Shown here: positions 16,857 through 49,224 of the stretch, one piece after another
Layout: each line of letters opens with the position of its first letter
Position numbering within the stretch: the first letter of the stretch is position 1
DNA from: Rhizophagus irregularis
Lineage: Eukaryota
Assembly: GCF_026210795.1 (NCBI RefSeq)
Contig: NC_089430.1
Span: forward strand, 5,456,001-5,520,000
Reading direction: 5' to 3'
Length of the DNA stretch: 64,000 nt
Position numbers and translations under genes: made by a program
Notes under the pieces: model-generated
Told to the model about the DNA's origin: nothing
The model's input: the letters and a program-made list of their open reading frames with translations, nothing else
Databases searched by the model: none

Positions 16857-19800
16857 ATGTACTGTATAAAGAAATTAATCAAGTCATCAAACACTGACGA
16901 AGAATTGAATGATATATGTGAAAATTGTAAACGTGTATGTTATGGAATAAATTTTCAAAGAAATTTTAAAAATTGGACTAGTGGCAATAATTATATTGAT
17001 ATTTTTATTCAAGTTACTCAATTATCCGTTCATTATCAATGTGAAATATCAAATGCATTAGAATGGATACCTTATGATAAATTTTATAATATTAAATATA
17101 TTTTAGAAGATACTTTTGGTAAAGAATATAAAGCAAATTGGATTGATGGATATATTTATAAATGGAATAATTATTTTAAAAATTGGAAAAGACGTAATAA
17201 AAATATGTTTGTAATTTTAAAAAGTTTAAATGATCCAAAATATATTACATTAAATTTTATGAATGAGGTATAATTTTATATGAAAAATAATTTTTTTTTT
17301 TTTTACAAAATTTTAATCTTTACAATACTTTTAGATTGAAAAGAAACATGAAACTTATGGAATAACTCAAAATCCGAAAACGAAAAATTATATGATTGTA
17401 TTAGATGATAAATGCAAGTGTAATATCATATGTAATGCGAAAATTTTTCAACAAAACTTCAAAAATTGGACTAGTGGTAACAAAGATATCGACAAATTCA
17501 TTCAAGGTACACAATTATTGGCTCATAATAATGTAGAAAACACATTAGAATGGATACCATATGATAGATTCTATGATATCAATTATATTGCAGAAGATAA
17601 TATCTACAAAGCAAATTGGATTGATGGATGTATAGATGAATGGGATATTGAAAATCATAATTGGAAAAGATATAATCAAAATATGTTTGTAAATTTAAAA
17701 AGTTTAGATAATTCTAAAAATATTACATCAGAATTAATAAATAAGGTATAGTTCATTTTTGAATGAAAGTTTAAATATTTTTGTAAATTCACTATAATTT
17801 TAAAAAGCATTATTTAAATATTTTTACTAATATATTATATTTATAGGCCAATCAGACCAATCATAGGCTTTATGGAATAACTCAGGATCCAGAATCAAAA
17901 AATTATATGATGGTCTTAAATGATGAATGTAAAAAATGTTATCATGCATGTAATGCAACTATTTTTCAAAATAATTTTAAAAATTGGACCAGTGGTAATA
18001 ATGATATTGATAAACTTATTCAAGATACTCAGCTATCAGCTCATAAAAATGCAGGAAATGCATTAGAATGGATACCTTATGATAAATTTCACAATATCAA
18101 ACATATTGCAAAAGATGAATTTGGCGAAATATATGAGGCAAATTGGATTGATGGACTTATAGATAAATGGGATGATGAAAATCAAAATTGGAAAAGATAT
18201 AATCAAAATATGTTTGTAAATTTGAAGGGTTTAAATACCCCAGAAAATCTTACATTAGAATTTATAAATAAGGTATGATAAGCTTATTAACAAGATTATA
18301 AGTATTTTTTTTTTCTAACATATTATTATTACATTTGTAGATTAAAAGAGACCATGAATTGTATGGAATGACTCAGGATCCCAAAAAAAATTATATGATC
18401 GTTTTAAATAATAAATGTGCGAAATGTAATTATATATGTAATTCAATATATTTTCAAAGAAATTTTAAAAGTTGGACTAGTGGTAATAATGATATTGATA
18501 AGCTTATTCAAGATGCACAACTATCAACTCATGAAAATGCAGGAAATGCACTAGAATGGATACCTTATGATAGATTTTATAATATAAAATATATTTTAGA
18601 AGATAGTTTTGGTAAAGAATATAAAGCAAATTGGATTGATGGATATGTTTATAAATGGAATAATAATTTTAGAAATTGGAGAAGACGTAATAAAAATATG
18701 TTTGTAACTTTAAAAAGTTTAAATAATCCAAAAAATGTTAAATCAGTAATTATGAACGAGGTATTGTTTTAACGAAATTTTAAATTTTGATTCTTCCTAT
18801 TTTTACTATACTAATATATTATATTTATATTTAATAGATTCATAGTAGTTATGGAATAACTCAAGATCCACAGACAAAAAATTATATGATGGTTTTGAGT
18901 GATAAATGTAAAAAATGTAATAAAATATGTAATACAATATACTTTCAACGAAATTTTAAAAGTTGGACTAGTGGTAATAATGATATTGATAAGATTATTC
19001 AAGATGCACAATTATCAGCTCATAAAAATGCAAGAAATGTATTAGAATGGATACCTTATGATAAATTCTATAATATTAAATATATTGCAAAAGGTGGATT
19101 TGGCAAAGTATATAAAGCGAATTGGATTGATGGACGTATATGGGATTGGAATGATAAAAATCAAAATTGGGAAAGATATGGTAAAAATATGGTTGTGGCG
19201 TTGAAAAGTTTAAATAATTCGAAAAATGTTACATTTGAATTCATGAATGAGGTATAATTTATTTTTATTTGATCAATTATTAATGAAAATTCTAAAATTT
19301 TAATCGTATTAATTTTTATATTTAGATAACATCTCATCATAAAGTAAGTAATGATATTATTATTGGATTTTATGGAATAACTCAAGATCCGGAAACAAAA
19401 GATTATATGATGGTTTTAGAATATGCAATAAATGGAAGTTTACGAAATTATTTAGACACAAATTATAATAAATTAAGTTGGGAAAGAAAAATTAGAGATT
19501 TATGTGATGTTGCAAAGGGACTTGAATCCATCCATAATAATAACTTAATTCATCGAGATTTACATATTGGTAATATACTAATGGGTAATGATACAGTTTA
19601 TATAACTGATATGGGATTATGTAAACCTGCGGATTATAATGAATCAGAAAATGCAAAAAACAACACGTATGGTGTATTACCATATATAGCTCCTGAAATT
19701 TTAAGAGGAGAAAATTATACCGAAGCTTCAGATATTTATAGTTTTGGTATAATTATGTATGAAGTGATTTCTGGATTACCTCCATATCATGATCTCAACC

Positions 19801-20291
19801 ATGATCAATATTTAGCAATAAAAATTTGTCAAGGACTTAGACCAAGATTTAATATTAAAGTACCACAATTTATCGTTGATCTAGTTAAAAGTTGTTTAGA
19901 TGCAAACCCATTAAATCGACCAACAGCAAAAGAAATTTATGAAATTTTTAACCCATGGAGTTTATCAACAGAATTACGAAAACAAATTAGTAAAACGGTC
20001 GAAATAAACAACAATTCATCAAATAATAAAATACCTTCAACTAATTTAGGATTATCATATAAAACACATTCGGAAACTTTTTATGCAAGTAGATTGCTTA
20101 ATTTTGATAATCTACCTGAACCGAAAAATTCTGATGATTATTATGAACGAAATGATAATATAATTGGCATGGAAATTTCAGGTATTAATTAATTAATAAT
20201 AATTCAAATCACTTTTTAATATTATAATAATAATACTAATAATTGATTTTTAATTTATTAAATAGAATCTTTACAAATTGATATTTCTTAA
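16857..20291 (+). CDS. Kinase B: TKL-type kinase with 5 N-lobe modules
   Basis: ORF modules at 16857, 17392, 17907, 18359 and 18886 splice in frame; only the last has GGFGKVY/VALK. Catalytic exon ~19326-20181 (HRDLHIGN, TDMGL, APE). A single tail exon from 20266 (ESLQIDIS) ends at TAA 20289-20291. Confidence 0.87.
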
Positions 20292-21526
20292 TCGAATGAA
20301 AATGGTTATATACAGTTAATGTCTTTGAATAATTTTTTTTGATTCGTACTTAATATATTCTATAGTTTTTCCATGTTAAATAACAAACATAGGCAAAGAA
20401 AAATTTAGAATAAATTTAGGACCTTTTGTTCTATTCCTAAAAATCTTCTTATCAAAAATTTATGTTATGGTGTTTGAAATAGACAGTAGGATCTGCAGAA
20501 AAGGTCATAGGGAAAGGAAAAATTATCATTATATTTTATTGTAATATTTCTAAACATTTGCACAATAAAATAGTAATTTAAGTTAATAAATACTAATATC
20601 ATATGTAAAATGTGTCGAGATAATTTGTTATCTTTTCACGAATAAGCATTTCTTTTATTATTAATCTTACCATCAGACGTCAGTATATTGTCGAGTTACC
20701 AAGGCTGATAAATTCTTTTTTAAAGTAAAAAATCTGAAACTGAAAGTAATGATGTTTGTTTTATCTTATTTTATTTATTTTATTACTATTATTATTTTTT
20801 TCCTTTTTTTTATGAAGTGTATATCATGCGTTCTGTTTTTTTTATTAATCTAGTTTTTTTTTTGGTCAGCTTGTGAGTCATGTTATGCACACGACTCAAT
20901 CGACTCCTGATTTAAATTATTATGTCAGCATTTTTTATTGTATATTAATTCGTGATCCGTGAGTAGGGATGGAAAAAGTTCCAAATGGAGTGACTCAAAT
21001 TGGTTTTAAAACTGAACGTTGGAGCCATTTTTGAGCTGACCGAGCAGCTCAGTGAAACGAACGGTTTGACTCTGAAAATCAACTCTGGAAGCTAAACTGG
21101 TCACGTGGCATTACACAAATTCCAAAAAGAAAATTTGTGCTGATCATATAATTCCGGCCGGAATTATGAATATCAGAAGTGATTCAGGACCCAGAAATAT
21201 ATATCATATGGGCGAGTTTAGTTCATTTAAATTTAATTGATATAATTGCCTTATCTGTCCCATTACATAATACCAATGTGTTCGATATTCATGTGATATT
21301 ATGTCATGTGAATATACAGATTTTATTAAATAAAATTTTCCATCTAACTAATCGTTAAACAAAAATAACTTAACGAAAAAAATGCGTTCAACCCATCCGA
21401 CTAACCTTGGTATATATTTCAGGCTAAACCTGCTGATTTTTCTTTAAATTTATGAATTTGTTTTATTAGTTTTCTCTATTTTTTTTTTTTAGCTATTGTT
21501 TACTTACAGATTTCTCTTTTTTAGTC

Positions 21527-22141
21527 ATGTCTACTCAAGATTCAACTAAGTTATATTGCTCTATTTGCAAAAGGCGTGCAAAAGGGTTTAAAAATCGCTC
21601 AGGACTTCAACGACATGAAACACTAAAACATGTGTCCTACAATACACTTCCGTCACACGTTCGGTCAGTTCCAAACTCCGAACTTTCACATTTAAAAAAA
21701 GCTATAATCAAAGAGTTGCAAAAACGTCTTAAAAATCATCACACTGCTGTTGGGAAACAAGTATTTTCAATACATTGCAGTGAAGATGCTTTTGTTAGTA
21801 TTTTTAAAAATCATATAACTCGTTATTCTCCATGTGGGTCTTCTTATTTTTGTAGTTTTAAGGGGGAAAAAGCCTTTGAAGAAGTTGGAAAAATCTTGGA
21901 TGATGAAAATTGGGGAGAACGTAATTATGGAGGAGGGCAATTAAGCTTTGTCCGTTTGCATATGCCTGAGGTTGAAAATAGTAATTATGAACAAAGTGCA
22001 AAAAAATCTAAAACAAAATCATTAGTTAATGGAGAAATGACTGTTCAATGGAAGGTGACAGGGGGTAAAGATAAAGAGAACCATAAATTTGAAGCAGGTT
22101 CAGCTCAATTTCGTTTTTTTTTAGATCAATGTCAAATTTAA
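21527..22141 (+). CDS. 204-aa transposon-borne protein with an N-terminal C2H2 zinc finger
   Basis: Uninterrupted ORF with YCSICKRRAKGFKNRSGLQRHETLKH (C-x2-C...H-x4-H). A likely 5'UTR intron lies at ~21410-21492; the remainder of the protein is unrecognised. Confidence 0.75.
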   Translation: MSTQDSTKLYCSICKRRAKGFKNRSGLQRHETLKHVSYNTLPSHVRSVPNSELSHLKKAIIKELQKRLKNHHTAVGKQVFSIHCSEDAFVSIFKNHITRYSPCGSSYFCSFKGEKAFEEVGKILDDENWGERNYGGGQLSFVRLHMPEVENSNYEQSAKKSKTKSLVNGEMTVQWKVTGGKDKENHKFEAGSAQFRFFLDQCQI

Positions 22142-22251
22142 AGAAAATCTTATAATGTAAATAGCAAATAATAAAAAAAATTATATAGATAAATTAGTTC
22201 AATTGAATACGTTTTTTCATTTTTTTTTATTTGATAACAAATAAAATCCTG

Positions 22252-24523
22252 TTATTCGAGTCTGTATTTTTTGGATTTTTTAAAAAAATTAGGAACTCTA
22301 TTTGATGCAAAGTACAATTGCCGATTTTCATGCTCTAACATTTCCAAAATTGCTGATTTTCGCGAATTTCTATTCCCTCCATCTTTCAATGTGTTTTGAA
22401 AATAAAGGCATATCTGCATATGATTTTTTTTTTCAACTGGAGAACATGAAAATGCTGCCAATCCAAACTTATGATGAATTTCAAGAAACTCCGCAACATG
22501 ATTGCATAACACATGAATATATGGTGTTATATCCTGAATACGATACATGCCTCTAACAAAATTACCTCTATTTGGATGTCCTGTAGAAGGAGCTGTAAAT
22601 TCATCTAACCAAGATTTGGCCTTATAACGAAAAAATTCACCAGTTGTTTTTTTATCTTGTATTAGATGATATAGTTCATTAAATTGATCCCATAAGGCAC
22701 GGATTTGTATGGCTTGTGTTATTGATTGAAATACAGCAAAAAGGTCAAATTCTTTTAGAACTTTTAATTTGTCTGGACCCATTAATGAAGTATAAGACAG
22801 ATTATTTGTATTTTTTTCATGCCAAAATTGAAACGAAATATTAAGTCTTTGCATTTCTGATAAAATTTTTCCTTTCCAAATTTCTTCATTTGCAGTCTCA
22901 CGGCGGAGATCAGAAATCATTAGTTCCCACAGTCTATCTGTTAATCGCAAAAAAATATGCAACTCGTCAACCACCCAATTTTGTAATGGTATCATATGAA
23001 ATAAAGGTTCTTTGATATGGCCATTTATTTGTTTATAATTGACTTTAATATTATCCATTGATTTGTTGATTTTTTTTGAAGTAGTATTAATGCTATTTTT
23101 ATTACAATCACACCATGGACAGAAATACTGTGCATTAGCAGCATTCATTCCTAAACAAATTGCTAAAAATTTCCAATCGGAACTGAAATATAGTTCTACG
23201 GGCCATTGGTTGCCACCTATTTGATTAAAACCTTTCTCTTTTAATATACATAAATCAGAAATTAAAGGAGTTAATACATTCTTAAGAGACTCATATGTTT
23301 CAGCTCCTGGATATAAAACCAAAGTATAGTGGTTATCTGGTTTTTGTAATCCATTTAAATCATTCAATAATGTCATTGTGACCATTACATGTTTCACTTT
23401 GCGTCCAACATTACGCCCATCTCCTGAAATTCGAATATGTAATGTTGATTGTCTAGGAATTAAAATTCCTTTTTCAATATATAATGGTATTATATAGTTT
23501 AAAATATCTGTTATACGACGTTGACCTCCTTTTCCAATTGATTCTAACATATTTGTAATAATTTCACTATCAGTAATATTTGGTTCTTCTCTAATTGGTT
23601 CAAATTTAGTCAGTTGCAATAAATCAACAAGAGTTAGTGGGACCTGTTTCTTCATTTCTGCATTAATTTTTTGCCATATATCACATACTGCCTTTTCACA
23701 TGGAAGATCTTCAATTCGTGCTAGAGATCGATAAGCTTCTCTTGATATATGACCTTTATCCAAAGATTTAACTACTGCTTCAATTTTTTTTATTTCCTCT
23801 ATTTTATTCACCTTTCCAAAATTAATATCATATACATCATCATCTATCTCAAATTTTATTTGTTTAAGTTTTATTTGATCATCTGGATGAAATGTATTGT
23901 CTCTTTCTCTTTCAACAATATCTAAAATACTCTGTGATAATCCAAGTATTCTGCGACGTTTTTGAGAATTACCAAGATCAATAAATGGCCGAATTTTAAG
24001 ATCTAGAGACATTGTTCTACGCACTCGTTCAACACTAAGTAACTTGAGACCAAAAAGTAAAGGACCAGATATTTTTCCTTTATTTTCTTTGTTTGACTGG
24101 TCCCTATTTCGATTTTTCTCCATTTCTTTCATTCCATTAAACTCCTAATAGAATAATTAGTTAATATTTATTTCAACAATAAAAAATATTTTTAAAAAAT
24201 AAATGTACCTGATAATACTTGCAGGCAGCATCTGTAGATGTCTCCCAGGAATGTACTTCTCTTGAAAAATTAACTCCAAAGCAAATTTTGTATAAAGGTT
24301 TTTTTTCCACATATTCAATTGAACATTCAACTGTATAAATTGCTTTTCCATATTGGGTCTTGACAACATAATTATGAGGAATTGGATGTTTCGGATTCCT
24401 GGTATAATGAAGTTGTTCTGTAAGAGGATATGTTCCCTCTTTTATTATCTCGTAAAAATAGGTTCTTTTATTATCAAAAAGTTTTATAAATGAACTTTTA
24501 GGATAAGTGCCTTCTTCTTTCAT
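22252..24523 (-). CDS. About 735-aa DDE transposase with a RAG1/Transib-like core and an FYR-like N-terminus (2 exons)
   Basis: Exons 24523-24209 and 24144-22252 join in frame (YYQ|EFNGMKE). Motifs ISGDG, SSDWKFL, FCPWCD, DELH, TPYIHVLCNHV and AFSCSPVEKKN are collinear with RAG1 catalytic and Zn-binding motifs. Confidence 0.82.
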
Positions 24524-24999
24524 AATTTATGTTTTACGTAATTATACTAGATTTATAAAAATAAAAAATGAATATATTAAAAATGTGATAAGTAATAAAA
24601 AAAATTATTTGAAAAAATTTAATAAAAAAAAAAAAATATTTAAAAAAAAAGATGCGTCGAAAAATGACTATCAGATCAAAATTTGTTATGCTTTTAAATC
24701 AAGATTAAAACCTGTATTCAATCCAAATTTAGTTATAAGCCTGATGATCATTTCCCAAATTGAAAACTTAACCTTACTTATTTAATCTATTTATATACCT
24801 GACAATTGTAATCTGACAGACAAGAATCGATCTGAGGCACAACATGTACTGTACATGAATTTTTTTTGCGGGATTTTTTTTAAAACTATTTTTTTAGAAC
24901 AGATAACCTGAAAAGTGTATATTATATATATGCCTCAGTAAGTTTTTAGGGAAAGGTTTAATATTAATGTATTTTTATTAATAGTATTTCTTTTTCTTT

Positions 25000-26820
25000 A
25001 TAGGAAATAAACTTGGAGACCTTGTATTTGGCATCTCTTTAATAAATTACACGTCAGAGTTTGCCGAAGCAGTTCAAGAAAAGTTTAGCAAATTTAAAAA
25101 TATTGAAATTCCAAAAGCTATTAATTATGAGCTCCCAGTGTATTATTTATACGGTGATGTGCTCACCATATTGGGTTAGTTAGACAAGAGGGTTTTCTAG
25201 CATTTCGATTGTATATTTTTTTAGGTGGTTCTTCCAGTTTCCTTAGACGCAAAATTTTGGTAAGTTTTTTTTATTTTTATTTTTTTCTTAATTGTTTTTA
25301 TTTTAACAAACAATTTCTAACAGTTTGTTCTTTCCTTTATCTAGGCAGTTCTCTTTGGATATTGGATTCTAGTAAGGTTAATTTCTATTTTTTTTGTATT
25401 TTATTTTAGTGAACTTTACTAACAGTTCATTTTTTCCAATTTTTTCATTTCTTTTAGATTTTGCCAATTCTCTCTGAAAATAGAGGTGGTGTCCTTCTTT
25501 TTTGTTTTCTTCTGTCTTGTTTTCTTTTGCCTTTTTATTAACTTTTATTTTTCTTTTTTGTAGATTTTGTCTTTTTTTTTTCTTTTAGATTTTGGCGGCT
25601 TCTTTTTTTCAGATTTCTCTAGGTTTGCTTATTCTCTTCAGGTTATTTTTTTTCTTTTCATTTCATTACTAATTTTCACCTTGCTTTTTCATTTTATTAG
25701 GTTTTAATACTTTTTCTTAGGTTTCTGCAGCTTTCTTTACGGAATAGAGATTGGTATTCTTTTACTTTAATTTTATTTTTCCGTCATTTTCTTTACTAAT
25801 TTATCCTTTCTTTGGCTGGCTCTTCTTTTTTTTAGGTGCCAGCGATTTTTCTTTTTTAGGCTTGACAGTTCTCTTTGGAAATAAAGGTTAATGCCCAATT
25901 TTTTTCATTATTTTTTTTTGTTTCGTTTTCTTTTACTAATGTTCATTTTGTTCATTTATTTCTTTTCTTTAGGTTTCAGACAGCTTGTTCTTAGAATCTG
26001 TAAGTTCCAGTACTTTTTTCTTTATAATTTAACAAAACTTTAACTAACGATTTCTTTTTTTTTCCTTTTTTAGGCGGATTTCTTAGACGTGCGTAATGGT
26101 GTGTGGTATTTTTCTTTAACTTGTTTATTTATGAACTATTAACTAGCAGTTTTTTCCTTTTTTAGGTAATTTTTCAGGCTCTTGGACACACGGAAATTTG
26201 GTGAGAGGAACAAATGATTACTACATTTCGCTTTTTTGGACTATTTAAAAATGATTTTTTTAACTTTTTTTATATTTGTAGGAATGGTATCACATCGGAA
26301 CCCTAGGTAAGTTTTTCGAGAAGCTTTTGAAAGCATCATCAAAGAAAATAATATATTAAAGTATTTTTTTATTTGTAGGCTCCGCACTTCTTTTCTTTGA
26401 ATGACTTTTTTTTAATGAAACTCTCACTAACGTTTCATTCATTCTTTTTTTTTAGATGGTTCTGAAGTGTGGAATTTCAGTTGAAATTTGTCAATGACGA
26501 ATTTAGAGATCTTGGGATGTTATAATGGGTCATCATAAAGATGTGATCCAAATCATCAAGATTAACTGGATTATCTGTCAGAACCTCCCTTGAAAGGTAT
26601 TTTAAAGATAAAGATGGCAGATTTTTTTTTTAATTAGGGATGTTAGTAAAGTTACTAACACCTCTTTATTTATTTATTTTTTATAGAAAGGAACCACTTC
26701 AGTATTAATGGAACAGCTTTTGAAGGCATTTAAAGGAGAAGGGAATTTTTTAGTCTGGGATTATCTAGCTAATGGATTGATCAGATTCATCCAGATCGTA
26801 CCTCAGGGTGAAGGATATAT
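25000..26820 (+). other. Chain of tiny exon-like segments with splice signals inside the transposon (putative spliced non-coding or degenerate transcript)
   Basis: About a dozen repeated GT(aag)...CTAAC/CTAAT...polyT-AG units separated by ~25-40 nt segments; no convincing ORF. Confidence 0.45.
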
Positions 26821-27544
26821 TTCACTGCTTTCTTATTGTAGCAAGTTTACTATTAGCGTGAAAACATTTTGAGTAAAAAAATTTAGTTTAACAAAGTACC
26901 TCATAATTAGCCACATGTTAACACTTTTAATTATTATCTTTTATCTAATAATAATTTACGTCATGAATGCATTATTTATTAAAAGCGTATGTAAAGTTAA
27001 ACTAGTCATATATATGGTTAAAGTAGCTATTACATTTCAACGATTCTAGTAAAGTAGCTGCTAGAAATTTGTTTTTTATTTAGAATCTTCGTATTTTAAT
27101 ATAATGTTAATTTTAGCCAAAATTACGCTAATTCTGGCCAAATTTTAAATCGCACTAAACTGTATTTTTTAAAAGTCGAATATACTTATCGGATTATTGT
27201 ATTACATATTCTATTTTTGCTGCATCTTTGTTGCTATAAAATTCAACGTATTTGGATGATGAATCAAATTCGCCGATATGTATAAGGGTCAGGTTTGAGT
27301 TTGCGTATTTTAAACTAAAAAAATCATGAAAATCTTTCCTTTTTTAGATAATTTTTGATAATGCCGGTCATAATATTATTTCCTATTATAGTAACGGGCT
27401 AACATTATCATAATTCCGGCCCTGAAAAAATGCGTACAGCTTATAGTAAAAAAATTTTTTCATCACCTGACCCCTATATATATATTTCTGGGTCCTAGTG
27501 ATTCGGTTCTAAACTCTGCTCTGATGGAGTCAGTTCCACAAATG

Positions 27545-28400: not shown

Positions 28401-28643
28401 AATGATCGCCAAAAGTGACACTATTACACTGCATTTCTTTTGTTATCCGGATTTAGTCTTGTTTTACACAACACAAATCACCTGATTATTGCATTATATA
28501 TAATTCGCTCTATGCAGAGATAAAATTTTTCTTTCTGTTTTTCCTGCAAAATATATTTCCCACAATCCTTACTCCACCTTTTTTTATTAGTATTTATTAT
28601 TAATTACTTATTTTACTTTTAATCAATTCTTATTGAATTGCAA

Positions 28644-31600
28644 ATGAGTCAAATTATAAGGAAATTATTATTGTCATTTCGTAATGATAAGTGTGAAAGT
28701 TGCGGAAATGATCATTGTTATGTAAAACATTTTCAGAAAAATTTTAAAAATTGGACCAGTGGCAATGATAATATTGATAAATCTATTCAAGATACTCAGC
28801 TATCAGCTCATAATGATGTGAAGAAAGCATTAGAATGGATACCTTATGATAAATTTCACAATATTAAATATATTGCAAAAGATGAATTTGGCGAAATATA
28901 TATAGCAAATTGGATTGATGGAAAAATACGTTATTGGGATGTTGCAAATCAAAATTGGAGAAGAAATAATCATAATATGTTTGTAAATTTGAAGAGTTTA
29001 AATATACCAAACATTCTTATATTATTAGAATCTGTAAGTGAGGTATTATAAGCTTGTTAACAAGATTATAATTAATTTTTTTCTAACATATTATTATTAT
29101 ATTTGTAGATTAAAAGAGATGAATTTTATGGAATAACTCAGAATCCAGAAACAAAAAATTACATGATAGTTTTTAATAATATATGTAAAAAATGCCATGA
29201 AAATTGTTATTCAATATATTTTCAACAAAATTTCAATTATTGGACTAGTGATAATAATGATATTGATAAATTTATTCAAGATACTCAGCTATCAGCTCAT
29301 AATGATGTGAAGAAAGCATTAGAATGGATACCTTATGATAAATTTCACAATATTAAACATATTGCAAAAGATGAATTTGGCGAAATATATATAGCAAATT
29401 GTATTGATGGAAATATACGTTATTGGGATGTTGCAAATAAAAATTTGAGAAGAAATAATCATAATATGTTTGTAAATTTGAAGAGTTTAAATATTCCAAA
29501 CATTCTTATATTATTAGAATCTGTAAGTGAGGTATGATAAGCTTGTTAACAAGATTATAATTAATTTTTTTCTAACATATTATTATTATATTTGTAGATT
29601 AAAAGAGATGAATTTTATGGAATAACTCAGAATCCAGAAACAAAAAATTACATGATAGTTTTTAATAATATATGTAAAAAATGCCATGAAAATTGTTATT
29701 CAATATATTTTCTACAAAATTTCAATTATTGGACTAGTGATAATAATGATATTGATAAATTTATTCAAGATACTCAGTTATCAACTCATTATAATGTGAA
29801 GAAAGCATTAGAATGGATACCTTATGATAAATTTCATAATATTAAATATATTGCAAAAGATGAATTTGGCGAAATATATATAGCAAATTGGATTGATGGA
29901 AATATACGTTATTGGGATGTTGCAAATCAAAATTGGATAAGAAATAATCATATGTTTGTAAATTTGAAAAGTTTAAATACTCCAAACATTCCTATATTAG
30001 AATCTGTAAATGAGGTATGATAAGCTTGTTGACAAGATTATAATTATTTTTTTTTTAACATATTATTATTATATTTGTAGATTAAAAGAGATGAATTTTA
30101 TGGAATAACTCAGAATCCAGAAACAAAAAATTACATGATGGTTTTGATTAATATATGTGAAGAGTGTGATAAAATATGTAATTCAATACATTTTCAACGA
30201 AATTTTAAAAGTTGGACTAGTGACAATGATGATATTGATAAATTTATTCAGGATACTCAGCTATCAGCTCATAATGATGTGAAGAAAGCATTAGAATGGA
30301 TACCTTATGATAAATTTCACAATATCAAATATATTGCAAAAGATGAATTTGGAGAAATATATAAGGCAAATTGGATTGATGGAAATATAAGTTATTGGAA
30401 TAATAAAAATGAAAATTGGATAAGAAGTCATCATGATATGTTTGTAAATTTGAAAAGTTTAAATATTCCAGAAAATTTTACATCAGAATTTATAAATAAG
30501 GTATGACAAGCTTATTAACAAGATTATAAGTATTTTTTTTCTAACATATTATTACATTTGTAGATTAAAGGATATGAAATTTATGGAATAACTCAGGATC
30601 CAAAAAAACAAAATTATGTGATGGTTTTGGGTGATATATGTAAAAAATGTAATGAAAAATGTAATTCAATATATTTTCAACGAAATTTCAATTATTGGAC
30701 TAGTGATAATGATGATATTGATAAATTTATTCAAGACACTCAGCTATCAGCTCATAATAATGTGAATAAAGCATTAGAATGGATACCTTATGATAAATTT
30801 TGCAATATCAAACATATTGCAAAAGGTGAATTTAACAAAATATACATAGCAAATTGGATTGATGGAAATATAAGTTATTGGAGTTATTGGGATGATGCAA
30901 ATCAAAATTTGGAAAGAACTAATCATAATATGTTTGTAAATTTGAAGAGTTTAAATACTCCAGAAAATCTTACATTAGAATTTATAAATAAGGTATGACA
31001 AGCTTATTAACAAGATTATAAGTATTTTTTATTCTAACATATTATTACATTGGTAGATTAAAAGAGAGCGTGAATTTTATGGAATAACTCAGAATCCAGA
31101 AACAAAAAATTACATGATGGTTTTAAATAATATATGTGAAAAGTGTAATTCAATATGCAATACAATATACTTTCAACGAAATTTTAAAAGTTGGACTAGT
31201 GGTAATAATGATATTGATAAGATTATTCAAGATGCACAACTATCAGCTCATGAAAATGCAGGAAATGTATTAGAATGGATACCTTATGATAAATTTTATA
31301 ATATTAAATATATTGCAAAAGGTGGATTTGGCAAAGTGTATAAAGCGAATTGGATTGATGGACGTATATGGGATTGGAATGATAAAAATCAAAATTGGGA
31401 AAGATATGGTAAAAATATGGTTGTGGCGTTGAAAAGTTTAAATAATTCGAAAAATGTTACATTTGAATTCATGAATGAGGTATAATTTATTTTTATTTGA
31501 TCGTTTAATGAAATTCTAAAATTTTAATCGTATTAATAGTTATTTCTGTATTTAGATAACATCTCATCACAAAGTAAGTAATGATATTATCATTGGATTT

Positions 31601-37290: not shown

Positions 37291-37440
37291 AGGACCCGAA
37301 ACATTTACTACTGTATTAACTGTACGTATTTTTTAAGGGCCGGAATTATGATAATTTCGGGCAGTATTCAAAAAAGGTAATGGATTTGCACAAGGCATTA
37401 TCTATAAAAGGAAAGATTTTTATGATTTTTTTTTTTTGGC
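37291..37440. mobile_element. Solo end fragment of the AGGACCC transposon family
   Basis: Starts AGGACCCGAAA and matches the reverse complement of ~27320-27450 (GGGCCGGAATTATGATAAT, AAAAGGAAAGATTTT). Confidence 0.7.
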
Positions 37441-49044: not shown

Positions 49045-49224
49045 AGGACCCGAAATATATATAAAGAGGTAAGGTGACTTTCAAATTTTTTATTAATAGG
49101 TTTAGTACATAAAATTTTCTAATCAGAAAAAATACTTTAACCTCTGATCATCATGTGATTTGCCATTGATGTAAAATTTTATGCAATAATGCACCTTACC
49201 CCTACATATATATTTCGGGGTCCT
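49045..49224. mobile_element. 180-bp MITE of the AGGACCC transposon family
   Basis: Both ends read AGGACCC(C)GAAATATATAT..GGTAAGGTG; flanks ATAATACA/ATATTACA (7 of 8 match); the paralogous empty site near 59833 has one copy (CTATTACA). Confidence 0.88.

Follow-up and report, generated by a model that had tools for sequence, protein, structure and literature searches.

The locus at positions 21186 to 27496 of the window, by which we mean the whole analysed stretch of 64,000 nucleotides of AT-rich fungal DNA from Rhizophagus irregularis (contig NC_089430.1, positions 5,456,001 to 5,520,000), most probably consists of two nested DNA transposons, a reading to which we give a probability of roughly 0.88. 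The inner element of 6076 bp has CA..TG ends, carries the gene for a transposase with a predicted RAG1/Transib fold and lies inside the left end of a high-copy, AGG-ended miniature inverted-repeat transposable element (MITE) of about 232 bp, which is likely of the P type. A sequence-only reading had described the same interval as one intact transposon, in which a RAG1-related enzyme would use AGG ends and an 8-bp target site duplication (TSD). The coordinates, the terminal inverted repeats (TIRs) and the TSD given there were exact: a perfect 19-bp TIR begins with AGGACCC at 21186 and ends at 27496, and AGTGATTC is present on both sides. However, the inner TIR pair at 21205/27280 had been overlooked, and the claim of a new end and target chemistry fails because two nested elements were read as one.

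Nested architecture of the locus

The features of the locus are given below in window positions, with the strand where one applies.

21178..21185: 8-bp TSD of the outer MITE, left copy, sequence AGTGATTC, exact match to 27497-27504
21186..21204, plus strand: left 19-bp AGG TIR of the outer P-like MITE, severed by the inner insertion (repeat match; joints in Logan contigs)
21202..21204: candidate 3-bp TSD (TAT) of the inner element, left side, in a TA run; a 1-bp reading fits too
21205..27280: inner RAG1-like (CMCT-type) DNA transposon, 6076 bp (TIR pair; unitig breaks; non-alignment to the MITE)
21205..21226, plus strand: inner left TIR, 22 bp, starting with CATAT (18/22 match to the right TIR)
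21527..22141, plus strand: ORF2, 204 aa, with an N-terminal C2H2-like finger, convergent with the transposase gene (open reading frame and homologs)
22252..24144, minus strand: transposase exon 2, 630 aa, with NBD-like helices, the RNase H DDE core and ZnC2/ZnH2
24145..24208, minus strand: transposase intron, 64 nt, GT-AG (skipped in contig 20 of run X18)
24209..24523, minus strand: transposase exon 1, 105 aa
25004..27155, plus strand: third transcript with many introns (8 GT..AG joints listed, run X18)
27259..27280, minus strand: inner right TIR, ending with ATATG on the plus strand (inverted-repeat match)
27281..27496, plus strand: rest of the outer P-like MITE, with the right AGG TIR at 27478-27496; it opens with TAT, the right side of the candidate inner TSD
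27497..27504: 8-bp TSD of the outer MITE, right copy, exact match to the left copy

The inner TIRs (21205-21226 and 27259-27280) are identical at 18/22 positions, have CA..TG termini and are bordered by TAT on each side; a score of 18/22 was reached by none of 100000 random position pairs. After excision of the inner part in silico, the remainder was 223/234 identical to the intact MITE L048, to whose positions 19-234 the 216 bp of 27281-27496 aligned without gaps, and two tested end segments of the inner element did not align to the MITE. In public Logan contigs, 21204 was joined to 27284 in 4/4 runs, and unitigs started exactly at 21205 (runs X9 and X10) or ended exactly at 27280 (X9), as expected if other copies of the inner element have other flanks. 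Contig depth was approximately 5000-31000 over 27281-27496 compared to 7-50 in the flank, a several-hundredfold excess over the last 230 bp, where depth is not to be equated with copy number. Because the inner TIRs are located at the break points and the MITE is restored upon removal of the inner part, we assign the AGG ends and the 8-bp TSD to the host MITE; they are likely properties of this outer repeat, into which the gene-bearing element would have inserted.

The stagger produced by the inner element is most likely 3 bp, judging from the letters at its borders: the 3-bp reading (TAT) is exact, a 5-bp reading agrees at 4/5 positions, and a 1-bp reading fits the consensus length of the MITE better. 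In run X10, a contig joins 21203 to 27281 with five differing letters between them at approximately single-copy depth; it may be the footprint of an excision or come from a variant copy of the MITE. In run X9, contigs cover the third transcript less well (window positions 24600-26380), and one of them leads in from other sequence at 26380, a pattern that suggests a variant inner element that differs in its internal part. The recent activity proposed in the sequence-only reading is hinted at by the intact genes, by near-identical copies in other runs and by the breaks at the inner ends, but an empty site is not proven.

The AGG-ended family and its probable P-like transposase

A scan for AGG ends yielded 54 metagenome loci. 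An 8-bp TSD, matching at 7/8 positions at least, was present in 4/12 two-ended copies and in 0/132 cross pairs. Of 69 ends, 17 that lacked the sub-terminal motif and 3 whose flanks were duplicates or too short were removed, whereas L003 and L015, which are probably not family members, were kept. In the resulting 49 single flanks, a pyrimidine (Y) occupies position -1 in 40 cases and a purine (R) position -8 in 38, and the symmetry of the flanks is maximal at 8 (46 of 5000 permutations). We take the 8-bp stagger of the AGG-ended family to be real, as judged from these aligned flanks. YAGG ends with a 6-bp TSD were ruled out, as both outer positions match in 4/4 of the TSD-bearing copies and the purine is missing in L038. 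The AGG pattern was also met in 11 viral and 14 prokaryote loci, none of which had an opposed exact end pair; these were taken as chance and excluded from all counts.

A different, multi-exon transposase was detected inside the AGG end in 14/54 loci, and the end faces the gene in all 14. P0361, a full-length homolog of this AGG-linked enzyme with 79% identity over one exon, gave a structural model that matched the Drosophila P transposase (6p5a) with an E value of 1.3e-9, compared to at least 0.06 for RAG, Transib and Hermes. The outer repeat is likely a MITE of this P-element-type family, which would then be the maker of the 8-bp duplication. What had been ascribed to a RAG1-type enzyme, AGG ends and an 8-bp stagger, belongs to a separate MITE with P-fold coding relatives. 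The family is widespread in fungi and is characterised by AG..CT ends and 8-bp targets of the form R-N6-Y. The multi-exon transposase of the AGG-ended elements (L018:483-5230, L034, L040, L047, L054, L014 and others) has no Pfam assignment, and homologs were found in Rhizophagus, Gigaspora, Diversispora, Melampsora and two agarics.

If the interval were a single element in which the RAG1-like transposase acts on AGG ends and leaves an 8-bp TSD, the perfect TIR and TSD on the outside and the intact genes between them would be explained, as would locus L032, in which a 42%-identical RAG1-like relative with ORF2 in the same layout adjoins an AGG end as well. However, L032 was recovered via the AGG-end search, and its similarity to the MITE ends after 70 bp, followed by CATATC. 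At L029, the AGG end (108-126) is directed away from a divergent RAG1-like gene (443-2445) approximately 320 bp downstream. Together with the inner TIR pair, the restored MITE, the P-fold transposase that AGG ends face in 14/54 loci and the unitig breaks at 21205/27280, which point toward CATAT-bounded copies with unrelated flanks, these loci make a single element extremely improbable. A further explanation, in which the RAG1-like module is passive cargo that was captured by a P-like element and moved with it as a non-autonomous P derivative of 6.3 kb in all, would agree with the intactness of both the outer TIRs and the TSD and with the occurrence of a RAG1-like gene within 500 bp of the AGG end in 2/54 loci (the end faces the gene in 1/54, L032). 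Against it, the module has TIRs of its own exactly where the MITE is interrupted, its catalytic triad is intact, its transcript is spliced, and the contig breaks occur at the inner and not at the outer ends; we regard this explanation as very unlikely.

Several of our own observations weigh against the nested arrangement that we prefer. The unitig break can alternatively be explained by a variant 30 bases inside, and the inner TSD was read from one copy only, within a TA run. Flanks of other inner copies were not found among the loose contig ends listed, and no second complete inner element was recovered. On the side of the outer family, 8/12 two-ended AGG copies lack a clean TSD (1-5 of 8), for which assembly chimeras or age are our guess, and L018, the only two-ended copy that has a complete P-like gene, shows a TSD match of just 3/8. 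Some of the 14 P-like loci contain terminal, non-catalytic pieces only. Finally, P0001, the protein whose model stands for the inner transposase, differs from the window protein at 10/735 positions, including D347N.

Further AGG ends occur elsewhere in the window, namely a second AGG-ended MITE of 180 bp at 49045-49224 with a TSD of 7/8, and a lone diverged end at 37291-37432, which is 71% like the right part of the MITE and for which no partner end was found. The left flank of the nest (20964-21185) occurs repeatedly in public contigs and shares a motif with the MITE interior; it opens with TAGGGATG, which is reminiscent of hAT ends. No right end matching TAGGGATG was detected nearby, and the flank is possibly a third, truncated nesting layer. 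Frames resembling protein kinases, assigned by eye, flank the nest at window 19326-20192 and 28623-29051; expanded kinase arrays are typical of these fungi.

Genes and transposase of the inner element

The transposase of 735 aa, which had been described as one unbroken reading frame in a two-gene element, is encoded by two exons (24523-24209 and 24144-22252) joined across a 64-nt GT-AG intron, and three transcription units were found in total. Run X18, in which the intron is skipped, was classified as RNA by a tool's guess, and the GT..AG joints are consistent with RNA. All six RAG1-like motifs named in the sequence-only reading are present in the protein, including the 19-residue spacing from D to C. 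The motif residues are D347, D428, C447/C450, H501, H649/H654 and E676, and they are kept in 71-74 of 74 homologs (D347 in 73/74, D428 in 74/74 and E676 in 72/74).

For the fold, an AlphaFold model of P0001 (pLDDT 85.7) was compared with known structures. Foldseek returned RAG1 with E 3e-13, BbRAG1L with 1e-9, HzTransib with 5e-7 and Hermes with 6e-4, and VIA-align gave a Z score of 25.8 for RAG1 (root-mean-square deviation, rmsd, 4.6; 444 residues aligned within residues 217-728), 22.1 for BbRAG1L, 21.6 for HzTransib, 12.5 for P transposase and 8.6 for Hermes. A wide structure search gave the same order of matches, with RAG1 at Z 23.7-25.8 across searches; the structural comparison suggested in the sequence-only reading thus did not place the enzyme in the P or hAT superfamilies. 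Three alignment rows reach the NBD (model 149-728 against RAG1 398-1008, Z approximately 20, rmsd approximately 8), a region in which the sequence match in the profile search was below significance. A profile that included distant relatives matched mouse RAG1 with E 9e-8, with the second aspartate, CxxC, the two histidines and the glutamate aligned, and with RAG1 also the best fold match the postulated relationship to RAG1 was upheld. The same profile matched BbRAG1L too, HzTransib was not listed at E up to 10, and fungal-only profiles reached only E 0.06-0.4 with RAG1/RAG1L. Single-sequence searches of PDB and Pfam with the window transposase returned nothing useful and no Pfam family match. 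Altogether, the modelled fold supports a RAG1/Transib-like enzyme rather than a P or hAT enzyme. In the predicted structure, residues 6-154 additionally resemble the FYR domain 2wzo (Z 12.2, rmsd 3.5, 127/146 aligned), for which no match was obtained at the sequence level.

The transposase falls in a protein cluster of 735 aa that is named from Rhizophagus irregularis, and the named matches among the 120 listed are all from Glomeromycota. The profile search retrieved 4007 proteins at E up to 0.001, and the named organisms among 20 distant matches that were looked up are Lithocolla, Argopecten, Clytia, Haliotis, Nematostella and Entrophospora. By these matches, the RAG1-like family appears as a lineage of Glomeromycota with relatives in a nucleariid and in marine invertebrates. 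A family tree of 32 rows, all of which were retained, has no outgroup and weak deep branches and shows only a separation of the fungal rows from the named animal rows (94/87). Pattern matches in viral contigs (45) and in prokaryote genomes (87) included no confirmed relative.

For ORF2, 85 homologs were found, of which the named ones are all from Glomeromycota, and the locus tags of ORF2 and transposase homologs are consecutive in 6 pairs from R. irregularis, R. diaphanus and Diversispora. Pfam and Atlas gave no RAG2/kelch or PHD signal in ORF2, which by its homologs and gene order appears to be a conserved, convergent C2H2 gene and not RAG2. For the third transcript, an exon-chain search revealed no open frame longer than approximately 115 codons in the window copy. 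In run X18, the depths of its contigs were far above those of the transposase, and alternative splicing was seen at its first joint.

In the order of events that we infer, a P-like transposase would first have placed the MITE at an R-N6-Y target, with a stagger of 8 bp, and the inner element would later have entered the TA run at MITE base 19. The inner element probably moves by cut-and-paste, catalysed by an enzyme whose DDE residues are D347/D428/E676 and whose C2H2 zinc site is C447/C450/H649/H654. This transposase would bind the 22-bp CATAT ends, nick them, form hairpins on the flanks and insert the element with a short stagger, most likely of 3 bp. RAG and Transib use hairpin-type cut-and-paste, and it is this biochemistry together with the fold that points to the same type of reaction for the inner enzyme. 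Chromatin or end binding may be the task of the predicted FYR domain and of the C2H2 protein inherited along with the transposase.

What remains after separation of the two elements is a RAG1-fold transposase of mycorrhizal fungi, intact, spliced and low in copy number, which is missed by Pfam; it lies in an element whose predicted chromatin-type FYR domain and conserved non-RAG2 partner form an unusual set of domains and genes. It may represent an outgroup for the question of how RAG1 acquired extra domains and a partner. In addition, an abundant unclassified family of AGG-ended MITEs is now tied to a P-fold transposase.

Relationship to known transposon systems

The AGG family shares with the P element superfamily the predicted P transposase fold of its coding relatives, the 8-bp TSD (8/8 in the window copy) with symmetric R-N6-Y flanks, and short non-autonomous derivatives. 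Canonical P termini are CA..TG, whereas those of the AGG family are AG..CT, and because of this difference we file the family as P-like and not as a canonical member. The accessible text of PMC7776569 states that P elements generate 8-bp TSDs and gives GTP dependence and a 17-nt staggered end cleavage as features of the superfamily. In the accessible part of PMC5751038, only 11 fungal P transposases are reported, all as single occurrences, whereas the P-like AGG family is widespread in Glomeromycota.

The inner element is a low-copy element of the RAG1/Transib/Chapaev (CMCT) type and fits the published definition of this clade, which, as far as the available text of PMC12730594 goes, comprises shared motifs, CA..TG ends and TSDs of 2-5 bp. 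It agrees in C447/C450, H649/H654, D347/D428/E676 and the fold, and in the CA..TG termini at 21205 and 27280; the exact TAT on both sides falls within the TSD range, with the reservation that it comes from one copy in a TA run where 1 bp fits too. No Rhizophagus entry was found in the supplement text of PMC12730594 that was available. Likewise, our search, which did not extend to Repbase, Dfam or subscription journals, revealed among the results listed no published account of the RAG1-like family, of a transposase with an FYR domain or of P-like elements with AGG ends in these fungi.

Within CMCT, the element might be no more than a Transib or Chapaev member that has diverged, and curated R. 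irregularis libraries may already list it as 'Transib' or 'CMC'. This classification is compatible with nesting, and we consider it a serious possibility, although short of even odds. Transib is similar in fold (HzTransib Z 21.6), in the C(2)C and H(4)H motifs and in the CA..TG termini. The inner ends, in contrast, begin with CAT rather than CAC with a heptamer like that of recombination signal sequences (RSS), the flanks are not exact at 5 bp (4/5, in a single copy), and the element has extra N-terminal domains and two further transcription units. A preprint, in its accessible portion, describes Transib ends as labile and variable, with TSDs of 2-5 bp (10.64898/2026.08.26.747230). The elements called Chapaev and Chapaev3 (CMC) share with the inner transposase C(2)C (C447/C450), LH (L500-H501) and H(4)H (H649/H654), which the text of PMC4079192 available to us lists as hallmarks of Chapaev. 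An AT-rich 3-bp TSD would be in their range, and weak DUF1280 matches were found in 4/74 family members (best 2.9e-5) besides RAG1 matches in 3/74; the accessible text of PMC3985635 equates DUF1280 with Chapaev. However, the inner element has CAT..ATG ends and TAT, compared to the invariant CAC..GTG of Chapaev and the TWA TSD of Chapaev3 (PMC4079192). The window protein lacks a Pfam match to Transib or Chapaev, the profile matches RAG1 and BbRAG1L but not HzTransib at E up to 10, and an FYR-like domain and a partner gene are absent from the portions of the family descriptions consulted.

Published surveys of such elements in fungi were compared, each as far as its text was accessible. Transib and new CMC families were reported from R. 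irregularis (PMC11075540), and the RAG1-like family may already be contained in that library. For fungal Transib elements, none were found in one survey (PMC5751038), 20 Transib-like proteins were counted in another (PMC9435367), whose supplement text gave no match for Rhizophagus, Gigaspora or Diversispora in the part available, soybean rust was the only fungal source in a third (PMC1131882), and a fourth noted their presence in fungi (PMC7204232). In the available text of PMC11952901, no mention of Transib was found.

With RAG1 and the RAG1-like (RAGL) elements such as ProtoRAG, the inner element shares the predicted RAG1 core fold, the DDE and zinc ligands with the D-to-C spacing, and a convergent second gene. 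It differs in that the partner is a C2H2 protein of 204 aa instead of a RAG2-like protein with kelch and PHD domains, in that the 22-bp TIR starts with CAT, not CAC, and lacks an RSS-like heptamer, and in the N-terminus of the transposase, which is predicted to be FYR-like; identity is approximately 14%. We raise, as a rather unlikely interpretation, that the inner element represents an unnamed CMCT lineage whose structure, with the NBD-like helices, resembles RAG1 more closely than that of Transib does, and which is distributed across Glomeromycota, a nucleariid and marine invertebrates. In fungi, its FYR-capped transposase and co-inherited C2H2 partner in a RAG2-like accessory role would then constitute a second, independent two-component transposase of the RAG1 type.

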